This document shows positions 18,913 through 64,000 of a DNA stretch of 64,000 bases, piece after piece; position 1 is the first letter of the stretch; each line of letters starts with the position of its first letter. The notes beneath the pieces are model-generated. The model saw only the letters and a program-made list of their open reading frames with translations. It had not been told where the DNA came from and did no database searches. This DNA comes from Escherichia coli (GTDB lineage Bacteria; Pseudomonadota; Gammaproteobacteria; Enterobacterales; Enterobacteriaceae). The position numbers were made by a program, and so were the translations under genes. The DNA is taken from assembly GCF_003334815.1 (NCBI RefSeq), contig NZ_QOWO01000008.1. One strand, given 5' to 3'.

Positions 18913-19632
18913 TTATAACTTACCCAGTTTAGTGCGTAACCGTTTAATGGCCTGGCTGTGTAACTGACTGACCCGCGATTCCCCGACCTCCAGCACCGCG
19001 CCAATCTCTTTGAGATTCAGCTCTTCCTGGTAATAGAGGGTTAATACCAGTTTTTCGCGCTCCGGCAGCGTTTCGATAGCTTCCATCACCCGCTGGCGCA
19101 GATTACTGTCCAGCAGTTGTTGTAGCGGGTTTTCTCGCTGATGATCATCAGTAACCAGTTCGATGCTATCGCCGTGCTCTTCGCGCCACTCATCGTAGGA
19201 GAAGAGCTGGCTGTTATTGGTGTCGAGCAACATTTGGCGATAATCGGCAATATCGATCCCTAAACGTTCCGCTACCTCAGTTTCCGTGGCGTTGCGGCCA
19301 AGTTCCTGCTCCAGTTGCCCTATTGCCTGTGCCACTTCACGCGCGTTGCGTCGCACGCTGCGCGGCACCCAGTCACGGCTGCGAAGTTCATCCAGCATAG
19401 CGCCACGGATACGCTGCACTGCGTAAGTTGTAAATGCCGTTCCTTGTAGGGCGTCATAGCGTTCGACGGCATTAAGTAACCCAATGCCGCCCGCCTGTAG
19501 CAGATCGTCAAGTTCCACGCTCGCGGGCAGTCGAACCTGCAGGCGCAATGCTTCGTGACGCACCAGCGGGACATAACGCTGCCACAGCGAGTGTTTATCC
19601 ATTACACCTTCAGCGGTATAGAGTGAATTCAC
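18913..19632 (-). CDS. fliA: Flagellar sigma factor sigma-28
   Basis: 239-aa ORF starting at GTG; sigma-70 family regions 2-4. Confidence 0.97.
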   Translation of the reverse strand: MNSLYTAEGVMDKHSLWQRYVPLVRHEALRLQVRLPASVELDDLLQAGGIGLLNAVERYDALQGTAFTTYAVQRIRGAMLDELRSRDWVPRSVRRNAREVAQAIGQLEQELGRNATETEVAERLGIDIADYRQMLLDTNNSQLFSYDEWREEHGDSIELVTDDHQRENPLQQLLDSNLRQRVMEAIETLPEREKLVLTLYYQEELNLKEIGAVLEVGESRVSQLHSQAIKRLRTKLGKL

Positions 19633-19657
19633 GATAAACAGCCCTGCGTTATATGAG

Positions 19658-19665
19658 TTATCGGC
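19658..19665 (-). promoter_or_regulatory. Putative sigma-28 -10 element upstream of fliA
   Basis: Minus strand reads GCCGATAA about 30 nt upstream of the fliA GTG; no consensus TAAA -35 at 15-nt spacing, so a weak call. Confidence 0.35.
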
Positions 19666-19751
19666 ATGATTATCCGTTTCTGCAGGGTTTTTAATCGGAC
19701 GATTAGTGGGTGAAATGAGGGGTTATTTGGGGGTTACCGGTAAATTGCGGA

Positions 19752-19777
19752 CAGAAAAAACCCCGCCGGTGGCGGGG
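19752..19777 (-). terminator. Rho-independent terminator of fliC
   Basis: On the minus strand: hairpin ccccgccaccggcgggg followed by TTTTTT. Confidence 0.6.
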
Positions 19778-19809
19778 AAGCACGTTGCTGACAAATTACC
19801 ATTCATGTT

Positions 19810-19910
<101 letters not shown>

Positions 19911-19951
19911 TTTGGCGTTGCCGTCAGTCTCAGTTAATCAGGTTAGGACGA

Positions 19952-21664
19952 TTAACCCTGCAGCAGAGACAGAACCTGCTGCGGTACCTGGTTAGCTTTT
20001 GCCAGCACGGAGTTACCTGCCTGCTGAATAATCTGCGCTTTCGACATGTTGGACACTTCGGTCGCATAGTCGGCGTCCTGAATACGGGACTGCGCTTCGG
20101 ACAGGTTGGTAGTGGTGTTGTTCAGGTTGGTGACTGCGGAATCCAGACGGTTCTGCACGGCACCCAGGGAAGAACGGAATTTGTCTACGGATGCGATAGC
20201 ATCGTCCAGCGCTTTCAGCGGATCCGTGGTCGCTTCAGATTTACCTGTAGCTTCAGTGGTCAGAGAGCCGTCAGCCGCTTTATACAGAGCCGCGCCGTCA
20301 TCATCCAGAATATTGCCGTTAGCAAATTCGTGATAAGTTTCTGTGACAGTCTTGTTGGCCGCAGTCGTCAGTTCACCCTCAGCACCAATATTTACGGTCG
20401 CTCCACCTGTAGTAGCAGTTACTGCACCATCAGCGGCAACGTCATAAGACTGTGCGCCGTTAGCTACGGTATAAGCCTGACCGGTTAACGCAGTGTTCAT
20501 ATCTTCGGCGGATACCGTCGCGCCCTTAATATCCACATTGTTGCTAACCTGGGTGAAGTCAACGGTCATGCCGCTGCCGAAGGTAATCTTCGCATCAACT
20601 GCATCATGACCATTCGCACCGTTGAAAATACCGTCCAACGTTGCCGCGGCTGGGCCGCCGGCCTGGTTTTTCGTCAGGTTACCGTCAGCACCAATGTATA
20701 AAGCATCGCCATTAGTATCCGTCAGGGTACCATCGCTGGCAATTTTAACTTCCTGAGCGCTACCACCGATGGAGATCTGAGCCGTGTTATCGCCGTTTGC
20801 TGCATAGGCTTTCAGAACATCAGCAACTTTAGTTGAGCCCGCAGTACCATCACCATTAGTAAGTGCGGTTGCGTCAAATGAATAAGACTTGCTGGTTGCG
20901 TTGTAGGTATATGCAGTAGAAGCCGCTACGCCTAACCCATTGTTTGTGCCAGCATAACCGCTAATAGTGCTGCCGCCACTAACGCTAGCCAGCACATCGG
21001 TAGCTGTTGCTGCATTAAAGGTAGTAACAGTAGATTTAGTCCAGGTGCTATTGCCACTGACAACTGCACTTTGGGAGAAGCCCGCAGCGGTCAGATCTGC
21101 TTCAGTGGCTTTTGCATTATCAACAGCGCCTTTACCGTTGACGTTGAAGCTGGTCAGCTTCAGTGTAGAAGAGTCGATTTTTTTCAGGTCAATCGTGATG
21201 GTTTCACCATCATTTGCGCCCACCTGAATTTTCATTGAACCGTCTTTGGACAACACATTCACGCCATTGAACTGGGTCTGACCAGATACGCGGTCAATTT
21301 CATCAAGACGAGATTTGATTTCGTCCTGGATGGAGTCCAGGTCAGAATCGGAGTTAGTACCGGTAGTGGCCTGAACCGTCAGTTCACGGATACGCTGTAA
21401 GTTGTTGTTGATTTCGGACAGCGCGCCTTCGGTGGTCTGCGCAACGGAAATACCGTCGTTGGCGTTACGTGCAGCCTGAGTCAGGCCTTTAATGTTAGAA
21501 GTAAAACGGTTAGCAATCGCCTGACCCGCGGCGTCATCCTTCGCGCTGTTAATACGCAAGCCAGAAGACAGACGCTCGATAGAACTCGACAGCGCAGACT
21601 GGTTCTTGTTGATATTATTTTGAGTGATCAGCGAGAGGCTGTTGGTATTAATGACTTGTGCCAT
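19952..21664 (-). CDS. fliC: Flagellin (H antigen), 570 aa with long hypervariable central domain
   Basis: Conserved N-terminus MAQVINTNSLSLITQNNINKNQ and C-terminus ...QVPQQVLSLLQG; Thr/Ala/Gly-rich centre; longer than the 498-aa K-12 allele. Confidence 0.96.
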   Translation of the reverse strand: MAQVINTNSLSLITQNNINKNQSALSSSIERLSSGLRINSAKDDAAGQAIANRFTSNIKGLTQAARNANDGISVAQTTEGALSEINNNLQRIRELTVQATTGTNSDSDLDSIQDEIKSRLDEIDRVSGQTQFNGVNVLSKDGSMKIQVGANDGETITIDLKKIDSSTLKLTSFNVNGKGAVDNAKATEADLTAAGFSQSAVVSGNSTWTKSTVTTFNAATATDVLASVSGGSTISGYAGTNNGLGVAASTAYTYNATSKSYSFDATALTNGDGTAGSTKVADVLKAYAANGDNTAQISIGGSAQEVKIASDGTLTDTNGDALYIGADGNLTKNQAGGPAAATLDGIFNGANGHDAVDAKITFGSGMTVDFTQVSNNVDIKGATVSAEDMNTALTGQAYTVANGAQSYDVAADGAVTATTGGATVNIGAEGELTTAANKTVTETYHEFANGNILDDDGAALYKAADGSLTTEATGKSEATTDPLKALDDAIASVDKFRSSLGAVQNRLDSAVTNLNNTTTNLSEAQSRIQDADYATEVSNMSKAQIIQQAGNSVLAKANQVPQQVLSLLQG

Positions 21665-21720: not shown

Positions 21721-21747
21721 CTCAATCGCCGTCAACCCTGTTATCGT
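21721..21747 (-). promoter_or_regulatory. Sigma-28 (class 3) promoter of fliC
   Basis: Minus strand reads TAAA-ggttgttttacgaca-GACGATAA, matching TAAA-N15-GCCGATAA. Confidence 0.8.
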
Positions 21748-21859
21748 CTGTCGTAAAACAACCTTTAGAATTTTTTTCACAAACAGCCATTTTTTGTTAG
21801 TCGCCGAAATACTCTTTTCTCTGCCCCTTATTCCCGCTATTAAAAAAAACAATTAAACG

Positions 21860-21886
21860 TAAACTTTGCGCAATTCAGGCCGATAA
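21860..21886 (+). promoter_or_regulatory. Sigma-28 promoter of fliDST
   Basis: TAAA-ctttgcgcaattcag-GCCGATAA, perfect -10 and 15-nt spacer. Confidence 0.8.
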
Positions 21887-29468: not shown

Positions 29469-32793
<3,325 letters not shown>

Positions 32794-32794
<1 letters not shown>

Positions 32795-34167
32795 TGACCA
32801 CGCGCCTGACTCGCTGGCTAACCACGCTGGATAACTTTGAAGCCAAAATGGCGCAGTTGCCTGCGGTACGTCGCTATGGGCGATTAACCCGCGCTACCGG
32901 GCTGGTGCTGGAAGCCACCGGATTACAATTGCCGCTCGGCGCAACCTGTGTCATTGAACGCCAGAACGGCAGCGAAACGCACGAAGTAGAAAGCGAAGTC
33001 GTTGGCTTTAACGGTCAACGGCTGTTTTTAATGCCGCTGGAGGAAGTGGAAGGTGTCCTGCCCGGCGCGCGGGTTTATGCCAAAAACATTTCGGCTGAAG
33101 GACTGCAAAGCGGCAAGCAGTTGCCGCTCGGTCCGGCGTTATTAGGTCGCGTTCTGGACGGCAGCGGTAAGCCGCTCGATGGCCTGCCCTCCCCCGATAC
33201 GACGGAAACCGGTGCGCTGATTACCCCGCCATTTAACCCGTTGCAACGTACACCGATTGAACATGTGCTGGACACCGGCGTGCGCCCAATCAATGCCCTG
33301 CTTACCGTTGGGCGCGGGCAGCGTATGGGTCTGTTTGCTGGTTCTGGTGTCGGTAAAAGTGTGCTGCTGGGGATGATGGCCCGTTACACCCGCGCCGATG
33401 TCATTGTCGTGGGTTTAATTGGTGAACGCGGACGCGAAGTAAAAGATTTTATTGAGAATATCCTCGGTGCCGAAGGACGTGCACGCTCAGTGGTGATTGC
33501 CGCTCCGGCGGATGTGTCTCCACTCCTGCGAATGCAAGGTGCCGCCTATGCCACGCGCATTGCCGAAGATTTTCGCGATCGTGGTCAGCATGTGTTGCTG
33601 ATTATGGACTCCCTCACCCGCTACGCGATGGCCCAGCGTGAAATTGCGCTGGCGATTGGCGAACCCCCCGCCACCAAAGGTTATCCACCGTCGGTGTTTG
33701 CCAAATTACCGGCACTGGTCGAGCGTGCCGGAAATGGCATTAGCGGCGGCGGCTCGATTACCGCGTTTTATACCGTGCTCACTGAAGGCGATGACCAGCA
33801 GGATCCGATTGCCGACTCCGCGCGGGCGATCCTCGACGGTCACATTGTGCTGTCTCGCCGACTGGCGGAAGCCGGGCACTATCCGGCTATCGATATTGAA
33901 GCGTCGATCAGCCGCGCAATGACGGCGTTGATCAGTGAGCAACATTACGCGCGAGTGCGCACCTTTAAACAGCTGTTGTCGAGTTTTCAGCGTAACCGCG
34001 ATCTGGTTAGCGTCGGCGCGTATGCCAAAGGCAGCAATCCGATGCTCGATAAAGCCATCGCCCTGTGGCCGCAGCTGGAGGGCTATTTACAACAAGGCAT
34101 TTTTGAACGTGCGGACTGGGAAGCGTCTCTCCAGGGGCTGGAGCGTATTTTCCCGACAGTGTCATAA
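32794..34167 (+). CDS. fliI: Flagellum-specific ATPase FliI
   Basis: 457-aa ORF with Walker [14 protein letters not shown]; ATGA overlap with fliH. Confidence 0.97.
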
Positions 34168-34185
34168 CCCAGGAGATAACGGCAG

Positions 34186-34629
34186 ATGGCAGAACATGGC
34201 GCGCTGGCGACCCTGAAAGATCTGGCAGAAAAAGAGGTAGAGGATGCCGCGCGCCTGCTGGGTGAAATGCGTCGCGGATGTCAGCAGGCGGAAGAACAGC
34301 TCAAAATGCTGATCGATTATCAGAATGAATATCGCAATAACCTCAACAGCGATATGAGTGCCGGGATGACCAGCAACCGCTGGATCAACTATCAGCAGTT
34401 TATCCAGACGCTGGAAAAAGCCATTACTCAGCATCGCCAGCAACTTAATCAGTGGACGCAGAAAGTTGACATTGCCCTGAACAGCTGGCGAGAAAAGAAA
34501 CAACGTTTGCAGGCCTGGCAGACACTGCAGGAACGGCAATCCACGGCGGCACTGCTTGCAGAAAACCGCCTCGATCAGAAAAAGATGGATGAGTTCGCCC
34601 AGCGCGCCGCCATGAGGAAACCTGAATGA
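34186..34629 (+). CDS. fliJ: Flagellar export chaperone/stalk protein FliJ
   Basis: 147-aa coiled-coil ORF; synteny. Confidence 0.95.
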
Positions 34630-35753
34630 TTCGCTTAGCGCCCTTGATTACCGCCGACGTTGACACCACCACATTGCCTGGCGGCAAAGCCAGCGATACT
34701 GCACAAGATTTTCTCGCGTTGTTGAGCGAAGCATTAGCAGGCGAGACAACTACCGACAAAGCGGCCCCCCAGTTGCTGGTGGCAACAGATAAGCCCATGA
34801 CAAAAGGCGAGCCGCTGATCAGCGATATTGTTTCCGACGCGCAACAAGCGGATTTACTGATCCCTGTGGATGAAACACCGCTTGTCATCAACGACGAACA
34901 ATCCACATCAACACCGTTAACCACCGCTCAGACGATGACGTTGGCTGCGGTGGCTGACAAAAATACGACAAAAGACGAAAAAGCGGATGATCTGAATGAA
35001 GACGTCACCGCAAGCCTGAGCGCCCTTTTTGCGATGTTGCCGGGTTTTGACAATACGCCCAAAGTGACTGATGTGCCGTCAACCGTGTTACCGGCAGAGA
35101 AACCAACGCTCTTCACAAAACTGACTTCTGCGCAACTCACAACAGCACAGCCTGATGATGCCCCCGGCACACCAGCTCAGCCATTAACACCGCTGGTAGC
35201 AGAAGCCCAGAGTAAAGCGGAAGTCATCAGCACACCTTCACCGGTGACCGCTGCCGCCAGCCCGCTAATCACTCCACACCAGACACAGCCACTGCCCACC
35301 GTCGCCGCGCCTGTTTTGAGTGCACCGCTGGGTTCTCACGAATGGCAACAATCATTAAGCCAGCATATTTCGCTGTTCTCCCGCCAGGGGCAACAAAGTG
35401 CAGAGTTGCGTCTGCACCCGCAGGATTTAGGTGAAGTGCAAATCTCCCTCAAAGTGGATGATAACCAGGCGCAAATCCAGATGGTTTCACCACATCAGCA
35501 CGTACGCGCCGCCCTGGAAGCAGCGCTGCCGGTACTGCGTACGCAGCTGGCCGAAAGTGGCATTCAGTTAGGGCAAAGCAACATCAGTGGCGAAAGCTTT
35601 AGTGGTCAGCAGCAGGCCGCTTCCCAGCAACAGCAAAGCCAACGCACAGCAAACCATGAACCTCTGGCGGGGGAAGACGACGATACGCTTCCGGTTCCCG
35701 TCTCTTTACAAGGGCGTGTAACAGGCAACAGCGGCGTTGATATTTTCGCCTAA
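34626..35753 (+). CDS. fliK: Flagellar hook-length control protein FliK
   Basis: 375-aa Pro/Thr/Ala-rich ORF; overlaps fliJ stop. Confidence 0.95.
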
Positions 35754-35791
35754 CGTCAGAGGTAGCACCGTAATCCGCGTCTTTTCCCCGC

Positions 35792-35818
35792 TTTGTTGCG
35801 CTCAAGACGCAGGATAAT
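35792..35818 (+). promoter_or_regulatory. Sigma-28-type promoter upstream of fliL
   Basis: TCAA-gacgcaggataatta-GCCGATAA, perfect -10 and 15-nt spacer. Confidence 0.65.
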
Positions 35819-35857
35819 TAGCCGATAAGCAGTAGCGACACAGGAAGACCGCAACAC

Positions 35858-36322
35858 ATGACTGATTACGCGATAAGCAAGAAAAGCAAGCGATCGCTTT
35901 GGATCCCGATTCTGGTATTCATTACCCTCGCGGCCTGTGCCAGCGCAGGTTACAGCTACTGGCATTCGCATCAGGTTGCCGCTGACGACAACGCGCAGCA
36001 ACGCGTCGTGCCCTCACCGGTCTTCTACGCGCTGGATACCTTCACGGTCAATTTGGGCGATGCGGATCGCGTGCTTTATATCGGCATAACCCTGCGCCTG
36101 AAAGATGAAGCTACCCGCTCGCGGCTGAGTGAGTATTTGCCGGAAGTCCGTAGCCGTTTGCTGTTACTGTTTTCGCGTCAGGATGCTGCCGTACTGGCGA
36201 CAGAAGAAGGCAAGAAAAACCTGATTGCCGAGATTAAAACCACGCTTTCCACCCCGCTTGTTGCCGGGCAACCGAAACAGGATGTCACCGACGTGCTGTA
36301 TACCGCTTTTATTCTGCGATAA
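35858..36322 (+). CDS. fliL: Flagellar basal body-associated protein FliL
   Basis: 154-aa ORF with single N-terminal TM segment. Confidence 0.95.
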
Positions 36323-36326
36323 CGAC

Positions 36327-37331
36327 ATGGGCGATAGTATTCTTTCTCAAGCTGAAATTGATGCGCTGTTGAATGGTGACAGCGAAGTCAAAGACGAACC
36401 GACAGCCAGTGTTAGCGGCGAAAGTGACATTCGTCCGTACGATCCGAATACCCAACGACGGGTTGTGCGCGAACGTTTGCAGGCGCTGGAAATCATTAAT
36501 GAGCGCTTTGCTCGCCATTTTCGTATGGGGCTGTTCAACCTGCTGCGTCGTAGCCCGGATATAACCGTCGGGGCCATCCGCATTCAGCCGTACCATGAAT
36601 TTGCCCGCAACCTGCCGGTGCCGACCAACCTGAACCTTATCCATCTGAAACCGCTGCGCGGCACAGGGCTGGTGGTGTTCTCGCCGAGTCTGGTGTTTAT
36701 CGCCGTGGATAACCTGTTTGGCGGCGATGGACGCTTCCCGACCAAAGTGGAAGGTCGCGAGTTTACCCATACCGAACAGCGCGTCATCAACCGCATGTTA
36801 AAGCTGGCGCTTGAAGGCTATAGCGACGCCTGGAAGGCGATTAATCCGCTGGAAGTTGAGTACGTGCGTTCGGAAATGCAGGTGAAATTTACCAATATCA
36901 CCACCTCGCCGAACGACATTGTGGTTAACACGCCGTTCCATGTGGAGATTGGCAACCTGACCGGCGAATTTAATATCTGCCTGCCATTCAGCATGATCGA
37001 ACCGCTACGGGAATTGTTGGTTAACCCGCCGCTGGAAAACTCGCGTAATGAAGATCAGAACTGGCGCGATAACCTGGTGCGCCAGGTGCAGCATTCACAG
37101 CTGGAGCTGGTCGCCAACTTTGCCGATATCTCGCTACGCCTGTCGCAGATTTTAAAACTGAAACCCGGTGACGTCCTGCCGATAGAAAAACCCGACCGCA
37201 TCATCGCCCATGTTGACGGCGTCCCGGTGCTGACCAGTCAGTACGGCACTCTCAACGGTCAGTATGCGTTACGGATAGAACATTTGATTAACCCGATTTT
37301 AAATTCTCTGAACGAGGAACAGCCCAAATGA
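36327..37331 (+). CDS. fliM: Flagellar motor switch protein FliM
   Basis: ORF track 36225..37331; start trimmed to MGDSILSQAEIDALL (334 aa). Confidence 0.96.
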   Translation: MGDSILSQAEIDALLNGDSEVKDEPTASVSGESDIRPYDPNTQRRVVRERLQALEIINERFARHFRMGLFNLLRRSPDITVGAIRIQPYHEFARNLPVPTNLNLIHLKPLRGTGLVVFSPSLVFIAVDNLFGGDGRFPTKVEGREFTHTEQRVINRMLKLALEGYSDAWKAINPLEVEYVRSEMQVKFTNITTSPNDIVVNTPFHVEIGNLTGEFNICLPFSMIEPLRELLVNPPLENSRNEDQNWRDNLVRQVQHSQLELVANFADISLRLSQILKLKPGDVLPIEKPDRIIAHVDGVPVLTSQYGTLNGQYALRIEHLINPILNSLNEEQPK

Positions 37332-37741
37332 GTGACATGAATAATCCGGCCGATGACAACAACGGCGCAATGGACGATCTGTGGGCTGAAGCGTTGAGCG
37401 AACAAAAATCAACCAGCAGCAAAAGCGCTGCCGACGCGGTGTTCCAGCAATTTGGCGGTGGTGATGTCAGCGGAACGTTGCAGGATATCGACCTGATTAT
37501 GGATATTCCGGTCAAGCTGACCGTCGAGCTGGGCCGTACGCGGATGACCATCAAAGAGCTGTTGCGTCTGACGCAAGGGTCCGTCGTGGCGCTGGACGGT
37601 CTGGCGGGCGAACCACTGGATATTCTGATCAACGGTTATTTAATCGCCCAGGGCGAAGTGGTGGTCGTTGCCGATAAATATGGCGTGCGGATCACCGATA
37701 TCATTACTCCGTCTGAGCGAATGCGCCGCCTGAGCCGTTAG
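37328..37741 (+). CDS. fliN: Flagellar motor switch protein FliN
   Basis: 137-aa ORF; overlaps fliM stop. Confidence 0.96.
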   Translation: MSDMNNPADDNNGAMDDLWAEALSEQKSTSSKSAADAVFQQFGGGDVSGTLQDIDLIMDIPVKLTVELGRTRMTIKELLRLTQGSVVALDGLAGEPLDILINGYLIAQGEVVVVADKYGVRITDIITPSERMRRLSR

Positions 37742-37743
37742 TG

Positions 37744-38109
37744 ATGAATAACCACGCTACTGTGCAATCTTCCGCGCCGGTTTCTGCTGCGCCACTGCTG
37801 CAGGTGAGCGGCGCACTCATCGCCATTATTGCCCTGATCCTCGCTGCTGCCTGGCTGGTAAAACGGTTGGGATTTGTCCCTAAACGCACTGGCGTTAACG
37901 GTCTGAAAATTAGCGCCAGTGCTTCGCTGGGCGCGCGTGAACGGGTTGTGGTGGTCGATGTGGAAGATGCACGGCTGGTGCTCGGCGTTACCGCAGGGCA
38001 AATCAATCTGCTGCATAAACTTCCCCCTTCAGCACCAACGGAAGAGATACCGCAGCCCGATTTTCAGTCGGTCATGAAAAACTTGCTTAAGCGTAGCGGG
38101 AGATCCTGA
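37744..38109 (+). CDS. fliO: Flagellar biosynthesis protein FliO
   Basis: ORF track 37741..38109; start set to [10 protein letters not shown] (121 aa). Confidence 0.93.
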
Positions 38110-38846
38110 TGCGTCGTTTGTTGTCTGTCGCCCCTGTCCTTCTCTGGCTGATTACGCCCCTCGCCTTCGCGCAACTGCCGGGTATCACCAGCCAGCCGCT
38201 GCCTGGCGGTGGACAAAGCTGGTCGCTCCCGGTGCAGACGCTGGTGTTCATCACCTCGTTGACGTTTATTCCGGCAATTTTACTGATGATGACCAGTTTC
38301 ACCCGCATCATTATTGTTTTTGGTTTATTGCGTAACGCGCTGGGAACACCCTCCGCGCCACCTAACCAGGTATTGCTGGGGTTGGCGCTGTTTTTGACCT
38401 TTTTTATTATGTCGCCGGTGATCGACAAAATTTATGTCGATGCGTACCAGCCATTCAGCGAAGAGAAAATATCAATGCAGGAGGCGCTGGAAAAAGGGGC
38501 GCAGCCGCTGCGTGAGTTTATGCTGCGTCAGACCCGTGAGGCGGATTTAGGGTTGTTTGCCAGACTGGCGAATACCGGCCCGTTGCAGGGACCTGAAGCC
38601 GTGCCGATGCGCATTTTGCTCCCGGCCTACGTGACCAGCGAGTTGAAAACCGCATTTCAGATAGGCTTCACGATTTTCATCCCTTTTTTGATTATCGACC
38701 TGGTGATTGCCAGCGTGTTGATGGCATTGGGGATGATGATGGTCCCCCCCGCCACCATTGCTCTGCCCTTTAAACTGATGCTGTTTGTACTGGTGGATGG
38801 TTGGCAATTGCTGGTCGGTTCGCTGGCGCAGAGCTTTTACAGCTAG
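38109..38846 (+). CDS. fliP: Flagellar type III export apparatus protein FliP
   Basis: 245-aa membrane ORF; ATGA overlap with fliO. Confidence 0.97.
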
Positions 38847-38855
38847 AGAGGCAAA

Positions 38856-39125
38856 ATGACACCTGAATCGGTCATGATGATGGGGACTGAAGCGATGAAA
38901 GTCGCGCTGGCACTGGCTGCCCCGCTATTGTTGGTAGCGTTGGTCACGGGCCTTATCATCAGTATTTTGCAGGCCGCCACGCAGATTAACGAAATGACGC
39001 TGTCGTTTATTCCGAAAATCATCGCCGTATTTATCGCCATTATTATTGCCGGACCGTGGATGCTCAATCTGTTGCTGGATTACGTCCGCACCTTGTTCAC
39101 TAACCTGCCGTATATCATCGGGTAG
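38856..39125 (+). CDS. fliQ: Flagellar export apparatus protein FliQ
   Basis: 89-aa membrane ORF. Confidence 0.96.
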
Positions 39126-39132
39126 CCGTACT

Positions 39133-39918
39133 ATGTTGCAGGTGACAAGCGAACAATGGCTATCCTGGTTAAGCCTGTACTTCTGGCCGTTACTGCGCGT
39201 GCTGGCGCTGATCTCCACCGCACCAATTCTGAGCGAACGCAGCGTGCCGAAACGGGTAAAACTGGGGCTGGCAATGATGATCACGTTCGCCATTGCCCCA
39301 TCATTACCTGCCAACGATGTTCCTGTTTTTTCGTTCTTTGCTCTGTGGCTGGCCGTACAGCAGATCCTGATCGGTATTGCGCTTGGTTTTACCATGCAAT
39401 TTGCCTTTGCCGCTGTGCGAACCGCTGGCGAAATTATCGGTCTGCAAATGGGGCTGTCATTTGCGACGTTTGTCGATCCGGCCAGCCATCTCAATATGCC
39501 CGTTTTAGCGCGTATCATGGATATGCTGGCGTTATTGCTGTTCCTGACATTTAACGGTCATTTATGGTTAATTTCACTGCTGGTCGATACCTTTCACACC
39601 CTGCCGATTGGTGGCGAACCGCTGAACAGCAATGCGTTTCTGGCACTCACCAAAGCAGGGAGTTTGATTTTCCTTAACGGGCTGATGCTGGCGTTACCGC
39701 TCATTACTCTGCTGCTGACACTGAATCTGGCATTAGGTTTACTTAATCGTATGGCCCCGCAATTATCCATTTTTGTTATTGGATTTCCATTAACTCTGAC
39801 TGTCGGCATCTCTTTAATGGCGGCATTAATGCCGTTAATTGCGCCTTTTTGCGAACATTTATTCAGTGAAATTTTTAATTTGCTGGCTGATATTATTAGT
39901 GAATTGCCATTAATATAA
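39133..39918 (+). CDS. fliR: Flagellar export apparatus protein FliR
   Basis: ORF track 39046..39918; start trimmed to [19 protein letters not shown] (261 aa). Confidence 0.95.
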
Positions 39919-39943
39919 TTCCGTAACGTTTATCATGTTATCC

Positions 39944-39957
39944 TAAGGATTATCCGA
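39944..39957. promoter_or_regulatory. Candidate RcsAB box upstream of rcsA
   Basis: TAAGGATTATCCGA resembles the RcsAB box consensus TaAGaatatTCctA; rcsA autoregulation is established. Confidence 0.35.
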
Positions 39958-40207
39958 AAAATAATACCTACGAACATCTTCCAGGATACTCCTGCGGCGA
40001 AATATTTGTTTTAAGCTCACTCACATATCGCAACATTTACTTTACTTTAAGACAATTCCAGGCAAATTATACAACACTTTACGGGATAGTAAGTCCGCCT
40101 GGAAAATCGCGAGAGTGGCGCATTAGGTGACCCATGTTGTTCCGTTTAGTCATGATGAAATATTCAGGTAAGGGGAATTATCGTTACGCATTGAGTGAGG
40201 GTATGCC

Positions 40208-40831
40208 ATGTCAACGATTATTATGGATTTATGTAGTTACACCCGACTAGGTTTAACCGGGTATCTGTTGAGTAGAGGGGTTAAAAAAAGAGAAATCAAC
40301 GACATTGAAACCGTTGATGACCTTGCCATAGCTTGTGATTCACAGCGCCCTTCAGTGGTGTTTATTAATGAGGACTGTTTCATCCATGATGCTTCTAACA
40401 GTCAGCGCATCAAGCACATCATTAATCAACATCCCAATACGTTATTTATCGTTTTTATGGCAATTGCCAATGTTCATTTTGATGAATATCTATTGGTCAG
40501 AAAAAATTTATTGATCAGTTCTAAATCGATTAAACCGGAATCTCTCGACGATATCCTTGGCGATATTCTGAAAAAAGAGACAACGATAACCTCTTTTTTA
40601 AATATGCCGACGTTATCATTGAGCCGGACCGAATCGAGTATGTTGCGAATGTGGATGGCAGGTCAGGGAACCATTCAAATCTCTGACCAAATGAATATCA
40701 AAGCCAAGACCGTTTCATCGCATAAAGGTAATATTAAACGTAAGATCAAAACGCATAATAAACAGGTTATCTACCATGTCGTCCGACTGACGGATAATGT
40801 GACTAATGGTATTTTTGTCAACATGCGCTAA
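40208..40831 (+). CDS. rcsA: Capsule synthesis co-regulator RcsA (LuxR-type)
   Basis: 207-aa ORF with C-terminal LuxR HTH. Confidence 0.95.
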
Positions 40832-40837
40832 CACATT

Positions 40838-40862
40838 CTGACTGGTGGTTTCCCACCAGTCA
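40838..40862. terminator. Hairpin between convergent rcsA and dsrB
   Basis: ctgactggtgg-tttc-ccaccagtcag perfect inverted repeat. Confidence 0.5.
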
Positions 40863-40874
40863 GGCTGAATAAGA

Positions 40875-41153
<279 letters not shown>

Positions 41154-41225
41154 CTATACTTAAGAGATGCCAGGCGGACTTAACGACTGGCGGCAACAAC
41201 AGAGTAACGGTTGCGAGGAAAGATG

Positions 41226-41453
41226 ATGAAAACCGCAAAAGAGTACAGCGATACCGCAAAACGTGAGGTCAGCGTCGATGTCGATGCCCTGCTGGCGGCG
41301 ATCAATGAAATTAGCGAAAGCGAAGTTCATCGCAGCCAGAACGATTCTGAACACGTTAGCGTCGATGGACGTGAATATCATACATGGCGTGAATTAGCGG
41401 ATGCCTTCGAACTGGATATTCATGACTTCAGCGTCTCTGAAGTGAATCGTTGA
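41226..41453 (+). CDS. yodD: Stress-induced small protein YodD
   Basis: ORF track 41211..41453; start trimmed to MKTAKEYSDTAKREV (75 aa). Confidence 0.88.
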   Translation: MKTAKEYSDTAKREVSVDVDALLAAINEISESEVHRSQNDSEHVSVDGREYHTWRELADAFELDIHDFSVSEVNR

Positions 41454-41466
41454 ATGCACAATAAAA

Positions 41467-41553
41467 AAATCCCGACCCTGAGGGGGTCGGGATGAAACTT
41501 GCTTAAGCAAGAAGCACTTAAAAAATTCGTTACACCAGGAAATCTGATGTGTT
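41467..41553 (-). ncRNA. dsrA: DsrA small regulatory RNA
   Basis: Reverse complement reads AACACATCAGATTTCCTGGTGTAACGAATTTTTTAAGTGCTTCTTGCTTAAGCAAGTTTCATCCCGACCCCCTCAGGGTCGGGATTT, which I recognise as DsrA including its terminator hairpin. Confidence 0.92.
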
Positions 41554-41732
41554 CATCACCTTATCCGCAATTTTTTTCGCTGACAAGAAAATATTCGCCA
41601 TATGAATGATTAACGCTACTTATGAATAGAAATGTGACGCACGTCACCCCTTGGTGGCTCTGGCGTCAGCGGGATCGCTCCCGAAAAAATCATCTTTGAT
41701 AATTTGTGCTGTTTTGAGAATCATCCTGGTAA

Positions 41733-44257
<2,525 letters not shown>

Positions 44258-57353: not shown

Positions 57354-57386
57354 CTTCATATTGCCGACAAAGTACGCGTTATCCCT

Positions 57387-57420
57387 GCCGGATGTGGCGC
57401 GAGCGCCCTATCCGGCCTAC
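57387..57420. repeat. REP (palindromic unit) element downstream of msrQ
   Basis: gccggatgtggcgcgagcgccctatccggcctac matches the enterobacterial REP pattern. Confidence 0.7.
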
Positions 57421-57550
57421 TCAGATCACATCAGGTTATGTTTCGTTTGTCATCAACCTCAAATTATCAACACAATTCATTTTATTTCAATAAGATAGAT
57501 AAGTACACCTGAGAAAACTATGCTCTCATCTCCTAAGAGTTGTTGCATTT

Positions 57551-57577
57551 TGTTATATGTTACAATATAACATTACA
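57551..57577. promoter_or_regulatory. Candidate Zur box in the zinT promoter
   Basis: Palindromic tgttatatgttacaatataacatta resembles the Zur operator; about 35 bp upstream of the zinT start. Confidence 0.5.
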
Positions 57578-57609
57578 CATCATATACAATGACTCTGGAG
57601 GAAACTGTT

Positions 57610-58260
57610 TTGGCGATTCGTCTTCACAAACTGGCTGTTGCTTTAGGTGTCTTTATGGTTAGCGCTCCTGCCTTTTCGCATGGTCATCACTCACACGGCA
57701 AACCCTTAACAGAGGTCGAACAAAAAGCTGCTAATGGTGTTTTTGATGATGCCAATGTACAAAACCGAAAGCTGAGTGACTGGGATGGAGTCTGGCAATC
57801 CGTTTATCCTTTACTGCAAAGTGGCAAACTTGACCCCGTCTTTCAGAAGAAAGCGGATGCAGATAAAACTAAAACATTTGCTGAAATTAAAGATTATTAT
57901 CACAAAGGTTATGCGACAGATATCGAGATGATTGGCATTGAGGACGGCATTGTTGAATTCCATAGAAATAATGAAACAACATCCTGTAAATATGATTACG
58001 ATGGATACAAAATACTCACCTATAAATCAGGCAAGAAAGGCGTTCGTTACTTATTCGAATGTAAAGATCCTGAAAGCAAAGCCCCTAAATATATACAATT
58101 TAGCGATCATATAATTGCACCACGAAAATCATCTCATTTTCACATTTTTATGGGTAATGATTCACAGCAATCTTTATTAAATGAAATGGAAAACTGGCCA
58201 ACGTATTATCCATATCAGTTGAGTAGCGAAGAAGTGGTCGAGGAAATGATGTCTCATTGA
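57610..58260 (+). CDS. zinT: Periplasmic zinc/cadmium-binding protein ZinT
   Basis: ORF track 57589..58260; start set to TTG giving [10 protein letters not shown]... (216 aa); His-rich HGHHSHG after the signal peptide. Confidence 0.93.
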
Positions 58261-58602
58261 GTATTCTCATGATAACGCCTCGATGCCGCTTTAGTAAGTC
58301 ATCATAACTGCCACTGGTCCATCCACAAACGCCACTGAACGCAAGCTAGCTACAGACACGCTCATCACTATGACGTGTCTGTATATTAATAAGCTAACCC
58401 GCATTGAGTTAACCAATAACGGATTCCATACACAATACGGCCAACAGAGAAAGATACCTGTGCTCACGCCATTGCTTATATTGGCTGGTTACAATGTGCA
58501 CTATCAATTTTTTAAATAACAAATTCTTAAAACCACTTCTGTATAAGGAATTTTTAAGGTTCGTGGGATAGCTTGACTGTAAAAATTACAGGAGCTACAA
58601 AA

Positions 58603-59133
58603 ATGAACCGATTCTCAAAAACTCAAATTTATTTACATTGGATAACGCTGCTTTTCGTTGCAATAACCTATGCCGCGATGGAACTCCGTGGCTGGTTTCC
58701 TAAAGGTAGTAGTACTTATCTGCTGATGCGAGAAACACATTACAATGCGGGTATATTCGTTTGGGTGTTAATGTTTTCACGCCTGATTATAAAACACCGT
58801 TATAGTGATCCTTCTATTGTACCACCGCCACCTGCCTGGCAAATGAAAGCGGCTTCGCTAATGCACATCATGCTTTATATAACCTTCCTTGCACTTCCTC
58901 TGCTGGGGATTGCTTTAATGGCTTACAGTGGAAAATCGTGGAGTTTCCTTGGTTTCAATGTGTCTCCCTTTGTTACCCCAAACAGCGAAATTAAAGTACT
59001 GATAAAAAATATTCACGAAACCTGGGCAAATATAGGTTACTTTTTAATCGCAGCTCACGCTGGCGCAGCACTCTTTCATCACTACATTCAGAAAGATAAT
59101 ACTCTGTTACGAATGATGCCTCGCCGCAAATAA
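58603..59133 (+). CDS. yodB: Cytochrome b561 family protein YodB
   Basis: ORF track 58573..59133; start trimmed to MNRFSKTQIYLHW (176 aa). Confidence 0.92.
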   Translation: MNRFSKTQIYLHWITLLFVAITYAAMELRGWFPKGSSTYLLMRETHYNAGIFVWVLMFSRLIIKHRYSDPSIVPPPPAWQMKAASLMHIMLYITFLALPLLGIALMAYSGKSWSFLGFNVSPFVTPNSEIKVLIKNIHETWANIGYFLIAAHAGAALFHHYIQKDNTLLRMMPRRK

Positions 59134-59702
59134 GTCGATCCCCTGACAAGGAAATGTGAACCATGGACATCAACGCGTCATAAATGTTTACGCAAGTGCA
59201 CAATGCACCCTTTCCACTATCAACAAGGAGGAGCAGAAACTGTGTAAATCGTACAATGGTAAGACTTATCAAAAATACAGGTTAATTTTGGTATTTAAAC
59301 CTTTTTTACTTGTTAGTATGATACAAAGGCTTTCAAAAAAGCTGGGAAATTCAACAACTCTTGGAAATTATGGACTTTGTCCCGCGGCTTTAATCTGACG
59401 GCCGCGTTCCTTTTTTGACTCAATTATTGACCCCTTCTCTACGCAACTTCAGTTCCCACCACCAACTTTGCGGCAGTTTCATAGGATGAATGTCTAAAAG
59501 AATAATGGTGAGCGATAAGAAAACGACTGAATAACTGCACATATTCGCTCGAAACTTTCCTGTCAGATCCATAGCGAATCAAGTGCTGAATGTCACAGTA
59601 TCGAACAGAAAACAGTGACGATCTAACCCATCAAGAATATTCTACGATTGTTCTGTTTAGGAAAAGCAAGGCGGGAAGTCGGGAGATAAGTCATTGATAA
59701 AG

Positions 59703-60859: not shown

Positions 60860-60947
60860 AATTCTAAAAATTCGCTTTTTTAGCGCAATGTCACTGACCT
60901 TAGTTGAACATTGTTTTTTAACGGATAGCGGGTTTTTAACATCTTAA

Positions 60948-60980
60948 GCGCCCTCGACCTTTATGGTTGAGGGCGTTTTG
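60948..60980 (+). terminator. Terminator downstream of asnT
   Basis: gcgccctc...gagggcg hairpin followed by TTTTG. Confidence 0.55.
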
Positions 60981-61172
60981 CTATGAACGCCATCACCATT
61001 TTCCCCTCGATTATAAAACTTGAGTTATTCAGTAGTCTCCCCTCTTGCAACTCACACCCAAAACTGCCTAACGAAAAGTTATTAATTTTCAATCATATTG
61101 CTATCAGTATTTACATTTTTTCGCTGTGCTAGAAAGGGCGCATTTATGTTAGCTCGTTCAGGGAAGGTAAGC

Positions 61173-63023
61173 ATGGCTACGAAGAAGAGAAGTGGAGAAG
61201 AAATAAATGACCGACAAATATTATGCGGGATGGGAATTAAACTACGCCGCTTAACTGCGGGTATCTGCCTGATAACTCAACTTGCGTTCCCTATGGCTGC
61301 GGCAGCACAAGGTGTGGTAAACGCCGCAACCCAACAACCAGTTCCTGCACAAATTGCCATTGCAAATGCCAATACGGTGCCCTACACCCTTGGAGCGCTG
61401 GAATCGGCCCAAAGCGTTGCCGAACGTTTCGGTATTTCGGTGGCTGAGTTACGCAAACTCAACCAGTTTCGTACGTTTGCTCGAGGTTTTGATAATGTCC
61501 GCCAGGGTGATGAACTGGATGTCCCGGCTCAAGTTAGTGAAAATAATTTAACCCCGCCACCGGGTAATAGCAGTGACAACCTCGAGCAACAGATAGCCAG
61601 TACTTCACAGCAAATCGGGTCTCTGCTCGCCGAAGATATGAACAGCGAGCAAGCGGCAAATATGGCGCGTGGATGGGCCTCTTCTCAGGCTTCAGGCGCA
61701 ATGACAGACTGGTTAAGCCGCTTCGGTACCGCAAGAATCACGCTGGGCGTGGATGAAGATTTTAGCCTGAAGAACTCCCAGTTCGATTTTCTCCATCCGT
61801 GGTATGAAACGCCTGATAATCTCTTTTTCAGTCAGCATACTCTCCATCGTACTGACGAGCGTACGCAGATTAACAACGGCTTAGGTTGGCGTCATTTCAC
61901 TCCCACATGGATGTCGGGCATCAACTTCTTTTTCGACCACGATCTTAGCCGTTACCACTCCCGCGCCGGCATTGGCGCGGAGTACTGGCGCGACTATCTA
62001 AAATTAAGCAGTAACGGCTATTTGCGACTGACCAACTGGCGCAGCGCACCTGAACTGGACAACGATTATGAAGCACGCCCGGCCAATGGCTGGGATGTAC
62101 GCGCAGAAGGCTGGCTACCCGCCTGGCCGCACCTTGGCGGTAAACTGGTCTATGAACAGTATTATGGCGATGAAGTGGCCCTGTTCGATAAAGACGATCG
62201 GCAAAGTAATCCTCATGCCATAACCGCTGGACTTAACTATACCCCCTTCCCGCTGATGACCTTCAGCGCGGAGCAACGCCAGGGTAAACAGGGCGAAAAT
62301 GACACCCGTTTTGCCGTCGATTTTACCTGGCAACCTGGCAGCGCAATGCAGAAACAGCTTGACCCGAATGAAGTCGCTGCACGGCGTAGCCTTGCAGGCA
62401 GCCGTTATGATCTGGTGGATCGCAACAACAATATCGTTCTGGAATATCGCAAAAAAGAACTGGTTCGCCTGACCCTGACAGACCCCGTGACAGGGAAGTC
62501 AGGAGAAGTGAAATCACTGGTTTCGTCGCTACAAACCAAATATGCCCTGAAAGGCTATAACGTCGAAGCCACCGCACTGGAAGCTGCCGGTGGCAAAGTG
62601 GTCACAACGGGTAAAGATATTCTGGTTACCCTGCCGGCTTACCGGTTCACCAGTACGCCAGAAACCGATAACACCTGGCCGATTGAAGTCACCGCCGAAG
62701 ATGTCAAAGGCAATTTGTCGAATCGTGAACAGAGCATGGTGGTCGTTCAGGCACCTACGCTAAGCCAGAAAGATTCCTCGGTATCGTTAAGTACCCAAAC
62801 ATTGAACGCGGATTCCCATTCAACCGCCACACTGACTTTTATTGCGCATGATGCAGCAGGTAATCCTGTTGTCGGGCTGGTGCTCTCGACGCGTCACGAA
62901 GGTGTTCAGGACATCACCCTTTCTGACTGGAAAGATAATGGTGACGGAAGCTATACCCAGATCCTGACCACAGGAGCGATGTCTGGCACGCTGACGCTGA
63001 TGCCACTGAATCGCCACGGATAA
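61173..63023 (+). pseudogene. yeeJ: yeeJ inverse-autotransporter adhesin, N-terminal ~617 codons only; reading frame ends at the IS junction
   Basis: ORF track 61098..63023; start set to MATKKRSGEEINDRQILCGMGIKLRR; stop codon lies 1 nt from the stop of the IS3-family orfB on the opposite strand; full-length YeeJ is several-fold longer. Confidence 0.85.
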
Positions 63024-64000
63024 TTTAGACACTTCCGAGCCGTTGATAATACTGGTTTTCATATTCTGTCGGTGACATCTGATCGCTGGAACCATGCCGA
63101 CGCTTACTGTTATAAAACATTTCGATGTAATCAAAAATATCGCTGCGGACTTCTTCCCGCGTTCCGTAGATCTTTTTCTTTATCCGTTCGCGTTTCAACA
63201 ACTGGAAAAAGCTTTCTGCAACCGCATTATCATGGCAGTTACCGCGACGGCTCATGCTGCCCTCCAGGCCGTGTGATTTTAGGAACGACTGCCATTCATG
63301 GCTTGTGTACTGACTGCCCTGATCCGAATGAACCAGCACCTGTTTTTGGGGATTACGCCGCCATACAGCCATCAGCAGTGCGTTCAGGACAATGTCTTTT
63401 GTCATCCGGGATTGCATGGACCAGCCGATAATTTTGCGTGAGAACAGATCAACAACCACGGCAAGATACAGCCAGCCTTCGTGGGTCCTTATGTAGGTTA
63501 TGTCCGTTACCCAACGCTCATCCGGAGCATCCGGATTGAACTGTCGCTGAAGCCTGTTGGGCGACACGATACTGGCCTCGCCTTTACGAGCCCGCGGGCT
63601 CCGGTATCCGACCTGAGCCTTTATCCCGATACGTTTCATCAGTCGCCAGACTCTGTTCACTCCGCACTGTTGCCCGCTGTCCCGCAGATCTAAATGGATT
63701 TTGCGATAACCATAGACGCATCCCGATTCCAGCCAGAACTGTTTAATCTGTCCTGTCAGTCTCAGGTCTGCCTGATGGCGTTGTGAATGCGGCTGCTGAA
63801 GCCAGGCGTAAAAACCACTGGGATGAACATCCAGCACCCGACAGAGCAGGCGAACAGGCCAGCAACAGGTGTTGTCACGGATAAAGGCGTACCTCAGTCG
63901 GACAGCTTTGCGAAGTACGCCACTGTAGATTCAATTGGTCAACGCAACAGTTATGTGAAAACATGGGGTTGCGGAGGTTTTTTGAATGAGACGAACATTT
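62998..64000 (-). mobile_element. IS3-family insertion sequence, partial (continues beyond right edge), inserted in yeeJ
   Basis: Transposase orfB plus upstream orfA-frame sequence running to the window edge; left boundary estimated to within ~25 bp from a TG-initiated terminal sequence just 3' of the orfB stop. Confidence 0.75.
63025..63837 (-). CDS. IS3-family transposase OrfB (DDE integrase core)
   Basis: 270-aa ORF with IS3-family motifs (VTDITYIRT..GWLYLAVVVDLFSRKIIGWSM, HSDQGSQYTS, NCHDNAVAESFF); starts at GTG and the frame stays open a further ~30 codons upstream, consistent with an OrfAB fusion. Confidence 0.9.
   Translation of the reverse strand: MLDVHPSGFYAWLQQPHSQRHQADLRLTGQIKQFWLESGCVYGYRKIHLDLRDSGQQCGVNRVWRLMKRIGIKAQVGYRSPRARKGEASIVSPNRLQRQFNPDAPDERWVTDITYIRTHEGWLYLAVVVDLFSRKIIGWSMQSRMTKDIVLNALLMAVWRRNPQKQVLVHSDQGSQYTSHEWQSFLKSHGLEGSMSRRGNCHDNAVAESFFQLLKRERIKKKIYGTREEVRSDIFDYIEMFYNSKRRHGSSDQMSPTEYENQYYQRLGSV

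Follow-up and report, generated by a model that had tools for sequence, protein, structure and literature searches.

Which flagellar antigen is specified by the fliC gene at 19952..21664, and to what does its product owe a central region so much longer than that of the K-12 flagellin? Within the window, by which we mean the whole 64,000-nucleotide stretch of DNA analyzed, the gene is an uninterrupted ATG-to-TAA open reading frame on the minus strand (570 codons plus the TAA stop), with fliA, fliZ, tcyJ and dcyD on one side and the divergent fliD, fliS and fliT, followed by amyA, on the other; this is the standard E. coli fliA / fliC / fliD-fliS-fliT arrangement. The 570-aa product scores 729 bits against the NCBIfam model NF005953, “FliC/FljB family flagellin” (cut-off 619), over residues 1-570, and Pfam recognizes Flagellin_N (PF00669) at residues 5-140 (E 1.4e-46), Flagellin_C (PF00700) at 483-568 (E 5e-32) and the central domain “FliC” (PF12445) at 347-473. 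Membership of the FliC/FljB family is thus seen in the curated whole-protein score, in the presence of both terminal helical regions, and in the position at the fliC locus together with a sigma-28 promoter. The gene is the intact chromosomal flagellin gene fliC and carries a known allele, H32.

Three segments can be distinguished in the protein. The N-terminal D0/D1 segment (codons 1-175; 21140..21664, minus strand) and the C-terminal D1/D0 segment (codons 479-570; 19955..20230, minus strand) were delimited by identity to K-12, by the Pfam matches and by the helices of an AF2 model, which places helices at residues 7-100 and 106-129 and a beta-hairpin at 143-159 in the former, and helices at 482-537 and 542-569 in the latter. 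In flagellins, D0 and D1 make up the filament core and mediate polymerization, and a helix of D1 is recognized by TLR5; residues 1-175 and 479-570 would pair in such a D0/D1 coiled coil, providing the filament core, a substrate for FliS-aided export and the TLR5-recognized surface. The variable outer-domain region between them (codons 176-478, 303 aa; 20231..21139, minus strand) was delimited by the loss of alignment to the K-12 core and by homology to the core of H6 flagellin, and these residues would form the outer domains on the filament surface that bear the H-antigen epitopes. A BLASTP self-comparison of the variable core returned the self-match alone, giving no internal repeats, and two look-alike stretches within it, DGTLTDTNGDALYIGADGNLT and NGNILDDDGAALYKAADGSLT, were rejected as a duplication, their similarity being not significant in the same comparison.

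FliC of K-12 MG1655 has 498 aa, 72 fewer than the protein encoded here, and its outer region measures 231 aa as opposed to 303. Ungapped identity between the two, taken per 15-residue block, is 87-100% up to residue 150, drops to 73% at 151-165 and 33% at 166-180, lies at a background level of about 0-20% between the conserved ends, and is 100% over the last 90 residues. An initial annotation of this DNA had described conserved polymerization termini, a product about 70 residues longer than in K-12, and a variable center at roughly residues 170..480, all of which agree with these measurements. It had further called the center very rich in Thr, Ala, Gly and Asp; the richness is real, with 53.1% of residues 176-478 compared to 30.7% in the termini, but given that the K-12 core itself reaches 54.1% it is a general property of flagellin cores and no mark of this particular allele. 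Its notion of a longer central domain stands as far as the additional length is concerned, but not in the sense of an extended K-12 domain: the core cannot be aligned to that of K-12 (E 0.14), whereas it matches the H6 core with an E-value of 1e-15. The K-12 protein (H48; PDB 8CXM) therefore shares with ours the locus, a near-identical N-terminal stretch of about 165 residues, an identical C-terminal stretch of 90 and a core of similar composition, and differs in that this core is 72 residues shorter and without sequence homology to the one described here.

The identity of the antigen could be approached through a published strain. FliC of E. coli 1303 (WP_001507509.1) shows no amino acid difference from the window FliC over all 570 residues, and the two genes are separated by three nucleotide differences, all synonymous and near the 3' end. 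Strain 1303 has been reported as O70:H32 (PMC4384141) and was uniquely typed as H32 by SerotypeFinder (PMC5422975). The companion strain ECC-1470 is listed as “Hnt” in the first study (PMC4384141) and as H2 in silico in the second (PMC5422975), and on this ground the two typings of 1303 were evidently obtained by different methods, the one in PMC4384141 probably being serological. The serotype distinct from K-12 that had initially been proposed is hence borne out by the exact match of the protein to FliC from a strain published as O70:H32. We hold with high confidence that the allele specifies H32, a label which derives by sequence identity from one published strain and from the separation from the lineage typed as H30 (see below). 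Strain 1303 and the window share the whole protein, the locus, the promoter and the terminator, and apart from the synonymous changes and a patch in the 3'UTR we see no functional difference between them.

The H32 allele is already known, and many sequenced E. coli carry it without change. A search of 5,426 complete genomes of this species found the fliC nucleotide sequence with 100% identity in six and with at least 99% identity in 67; in public collections the identical protein corresponds to UniProt Q9AL29, in a cluster of 464 members, and is found on at least 1,000 contigs. The sequenced E. coli carrying the allele come from pigs, cattle, poultry, humans and water. Neither Q9AL29 nor any of six strain names taken from the group with the identical allele was mentioned in the literature searched. 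As a matter of bookkeeping, the window can be labeled as H32 E. coli, with 1303 and WP7-S17-ESBL-04, both phylogroup-A-like, among the strains it resembles most.

What distinguishes the outer region becomes apparent from the comparison with solved flagellin structures (for the PDB identities of the H6, H7 and K-12 entries see PMC8931119). The best sequence matches in the PDB are the flagellins of EPEC O127:H6 (7SQJ/7SN7, 548 aa), with one continuous HMMER alignment of residues 1-570 to residues 1-548 of 7SQJ, followed by EHEC H7 (7SN4), which is aligned only partially in the core, and K-12 (8CXM), aligned at the ends only. Taken separately, the core can be aligned to that of EPEC H6 over its entire length, at 31.9% identity. 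The D2/D3 domains of the K-12 flagellin resemble those of Salmonella, and its filament has no sheath, while the flagellins of sheathed filaments possess three outer domains, D2-D4, that are unrelated to the D2-D3 domains of Salmonella and K-12, and are 50-100 residues larger than the flagellins of K-12 or Salmonella (PMC8931119). The 72 additional residues of the window FliC fall within this range. In the sheath, flagellins pair through a D4 interface that involves two conserved asparagines, N319 and N323 in H7, and mutation of these asparagines disrupts both the sheath and motility (PMC8931119). A motif search located a counterpart, GNLTKNQAG, at residue 328 of the window FliC (codons 328-336; 20657..20683, minus strand) and GNLTKNNAG at residue 319 of H6, with none in K-12; in the HMMER alignment N329 and N333 correspond column by column to N319 and N323 of H7, and G328, N329, L330 and T331 hardly vary across the alignment of core homologs.

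Structure prediction gave results in the same direction. For the AF2 model, which was built from 17 sequences, pLDDT averages 78.6, with values mostly of 80-94 in the outer region and low values confined to the D0 helices. In a Foldseek search against the PDB, the flagellins of H7, Azotobacter vinelandii, H6 and Achromobacter (top four entries 7sn4, 9n59, 7sn7 and 7sqd) led with E-values from 3e-41 to 3e-30, albeit with global TM-scores of only 0.36-0.42, and Salmonella FliC followed at about 1e-24; the rmsd to solved flagellins exceeded 20 Å, the whole multi-domain monomer having been superposed. A low global TM-score would be expected for the model of a multi-domain monomer whose domains are oriented differently, and the fold match should accordingly be read as supportive rather than decisive. 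We infer that the outer region belongs to the class represented by H6, H7, Achromobacter and Azotobacter, with three outer domains D2-D4, rather than to the two-domain type of Salmonella and K-12. The 72 additional residues would then be explained by a different outer-domain architecture (D2-D4) and not by expansion of a K-12 domain.

The likeness to the reference flagellins is uneven. Both H6 (7SN7/7SQJ) and H7 (7SN4) share with the window FliC a near-identical D0/D1, the D4 motif and an outer region larger than that of K-12. The EPEC H6 protein is homologous to ours over the full length of the outer region, yet the cores are only about 32% identical, and it is 22 residues shorter; the core of the EHEC O157:H7 protein aligns in part, and the window FliC is 15 residues shorter than this flagellin. 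Cores with 34-46% identity to that of the window FliC were found in full-length flagellins from Atlantibacter hermannii, Yersinia, Pantoea and Citrobacter, as well as from the betaproteobacteria Ramlibacter and Variovorax, a distribution in line with what is known of this outer-domain family, which extends beyond E. coli.

Since the asparagines of the D4 dimer interface are conserved, we consider it fairly probable, by analogy with H6 and H7, that H32 filaments form an outer-domain sheath like those two. The alternative that survives best is that H32 has an H6-like fold whose outer domains stay unpaired, leaving a filament surface of ordinary, independent domains. With a core identity to H6 of only 32%, and with H7 arranged in dimers and H6 in tetramers with a seam despite their similar architecture (PMC11532411), the packing of H32 is not predictable from the class as such, and our search for experimental images of H32 filaments returned none; on the other hand, both interface asparagines are retained along with their GNLT.N.AG surroundings, the motif is nearly invariant among core homologs, and the size increase of 72 aa lies in the range of 50-100 aa given for sheath flagellins (PMC8931119). 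Unpaired domains seem to us the less likely outcome, yet a serious possibility. The sheath reading can be extended to a broader scenario, towards which we lean only slightly: filaments of H32, and of its sister H30, would be of the sheath-forming H6/H7 type and paired through the D4 asparagine motif, the family would have been exchanged among Enterobacterales and betaproteobacteria, and the split between H30 and H32 would come down to a few charge-changing substitutions at the surface. Were this to be true, a sheath architecture that modulates motility would extend to an H type common among commensal and livestock-associated E. coli. For this type of sheath, an influence on tumbling and on movement through viscous media has been demonstrated only in H7, and H32 could serve as an easy further test case.

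The sequences surrounding fliC were inspected for the signals of its expression. Sites were scored against the FliA consensus TAAAGTTT-N11-GCCGATAA at 16 positions, and only five sites in the 64-kb window match at 13 or more of these. Among them is the putative class-3 (sigma-28/FliA) promoter of fliC, TAAAGGTT-N11-GACGATAA (21741..21767, minus strand), with 14 of 16 consensus positions; judging from consensus and position, this site presumably drives fliC. A divergent sigma-28 promoter, TAAACTTT-N11-GCCGATAA (21860..21886, plus strand; 15 of 16 positions), precedes fliD-fliS-fliT, whose products include the cap protein and the FliC chaperone. A scan for sigma-70 promoters yielded nothing above chance (2 sites compared to 2.7 expected).

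Downstream of the gene, terminator search and alignment to K-12 define a 3'UTR (19755..19948, minus strand) that contains two REP-type palindromes and an intrinsic terminator, the latter consisting of a 7-bp GC hairpin with its stem at 19777-19761 and, next to it, a T-run at 19760-19755. In an alignment of four strains, this 3'UTR and the K-12 region annotated as “small RNA FliX” show a mean column identity of 98%, so that by sequence the fliC 3'UTR appears equivalent to the FliX sRNA annotated in K-12. An Rfam scan of the fliC locus gave REP-derived matches alone, located at the palindromes (19790-19887): naRNA4 with 41.9 bits, below the gathering threshold of 59.5, and ES036 with 38.1 against 37.6.

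These signals bear on a second alternative, namely that the strain is H32 by sequence without displaying the antigen, either being non-motile or exposing another flagellin encoded on an islet of the flk/fll/flm/fln type that represses fliC. E. coli strains with such islets or with an inactive flagellar regulon are known (PMC7018530; PMC5422975), and flhDC and any flagellin islet or fliC repressor would lie outside the 64 kb of the window. Against this, fliC is the only flagellin gene detected in the window and has an intact promoter and terminator, the fli genes of the window, 20 in number, are all intact, including fliA, fliZ, fliD, fliS, fliT and fliE-R, and complete genomes contain a median of one flagellin-like place. 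We regard a silent H32 gene as improbable.

The assignment to H32 has to take account of a close relative. Of the 53 H antigens of E. coli, only four pairs are regarded as related, H30 and H32 being one of them (Hu and Reeves, PMC7018530); neither H30 nor H32 occurs in the supplements of that study, and its text, in which the relation of morphotypes to clusters is left to the figures, allows no lawn morphotype to be assigned to H32 (PMC7018530). When the 5,426 complete genomes were searched with the variable core, 67 matched at 99% identity or more and a further 155 at about 93%; no genome had an intermediate value. The lower group includes genomes named ST361 and ST540. ST361 has been typed as O9/H30 (PMC12744401), although the typed isolate differs from the ST361 genome compared here. 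The flagellin of the ST361 genome (WP_000079738.1), taken as representative of the ST361/ST540 O9:H30 lineage, shares its length of 570 aa and its domain architecture with the window FliC and is 96% identical to it, with 21 substitutions and no gaps.

Of these substitutions, 20 fall in the outer region, and seven change the charge, six in the outer region and one, D106T, in D1. At the nucleotide level, the H30 gene of ST361 and the window fliC differ at 103 positions; dS ranges from 0.17 to 0.38 from codon 46 onwards, while dN/dS amounts to 0.16 for the core and does not exceed 0.02 for the ends. We considered positive selection between H30 and H32 and reject it on the basis of these ratios. 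The dS along with the low dN/dS characterizes H30 and H32, as far as can be read from the coding sequences, as old sister alleles under purifying selection and not as recent variants. The 20 substitutions in the outer region, with the six that alter charge, are likely the basis of the serological distinction between the two antigens.

Given this proximity, the allele might be suspected to specify H30 instead, the labels having been swapped or the antigens being cross-reactive. The recognized relatedness of the pair (PMC7018530), together with the equal length and the 96% identity, makes the suspicion understandable, and our comparison covered strain 1303 and the ST361 genome as references. It is contradicted by the identity of the protein to that of 1303, which is H32 in two papers and evidently by different methods, by the ST361/ST540 names within the other allele group, with ST361 typed as O9/H30, and by the discreteness of the two groups in the genome search; we judge an H30 specificity to be very improbable, and retain H32. 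Typing in silico must nevertheless keep H32 apart from its 96%-identical sister H30. The value added by this analysis is limited to the H-type call, this warning with regard to H30, and the recognition of an outer region of the H6/H7 sheath type. Outside the window, one 546-aa E. coli flagellin of the H30 type (protein P0017) shows a clean in-frame deletion of the outer-region residues 399-422, and may represent a rare deletion variant that still types as H30.

Signs of recombination are visible around the gene. In the vicinity of fliC, strain 1303 differs from the window only in a patch at 19437-20030, where 16 differences are found; the patch spans the last ~80 bp of fliC (three synonymous changes), the REP-containing 3'UTR and one fliA site, and in places the window agrees there with ST361, the H30 strain, rather than with 1303. 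This distribution suggests a small tract of recombination or gene conversion, and its location is what is usually seen when recombination events begin or end in the conserved parts of fliC or close to them. A new H type, or a hybrid formed by recombination between known types, might be proposed from the fact that fliC alleles do recombine and from this small patch at the fliC 3' end and in the 3'UTR, but the patch entails no amino acid change with respect to 1303, and the sequence is already public as Q9AL29 and the gene 100% identical in six complete genomes, exact matches that effectively refute a proposal to which we give hardly any credence.

On a larger scale, the window and WP7-S17-ESBL-04 are separated by only five SNPs over positions 1-32000 and by 111 over 32001-41664 (fliH/fliI to fliR), and are 97.9% identical over 41147-58260, a pattern that indicates a putative recombination boundary near 32 kb. 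Collinearity with this strain is broken at about 58261-59255 and at 60864-64000. WP7-S17-ESBL-04 carries an integrase and the yersiniabactin genes ybtS and ybtX beside tRNA-Asn, where the window has an adhesin gene and an insertion sequence instead. The adhesin reading frame (61098-63023, plus strand) encodes the N-terminal 641 aa of an inverse autotransporter similar to IatC/YeeJ and is directly followed by the transposase ORF of an IS3-family element (63025-63837, minus strand), by which the adhesin gene has probably been truncated.

A few further genes of the window deserve mention. A cytochrome b561 ORF is found at 58573-59133. At 50261-51478, between hchA and drpB, lies a paralog of the OmpC-family porins (405 aa, scoring 540 bits with the model of the “porin OmpC” subfamily) that is annotated as “ompC” in WP7-S17-ESBL-04. 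The dgcQ-equivalent reading frame at 42563-44272 is open in the window, with 569 aa and a TTG start as given in the ORF list, whereas the annotation of WP7-S17-ESBL-04, a close relative, treats dgcQ as a pseudogene that contains an internal stop.
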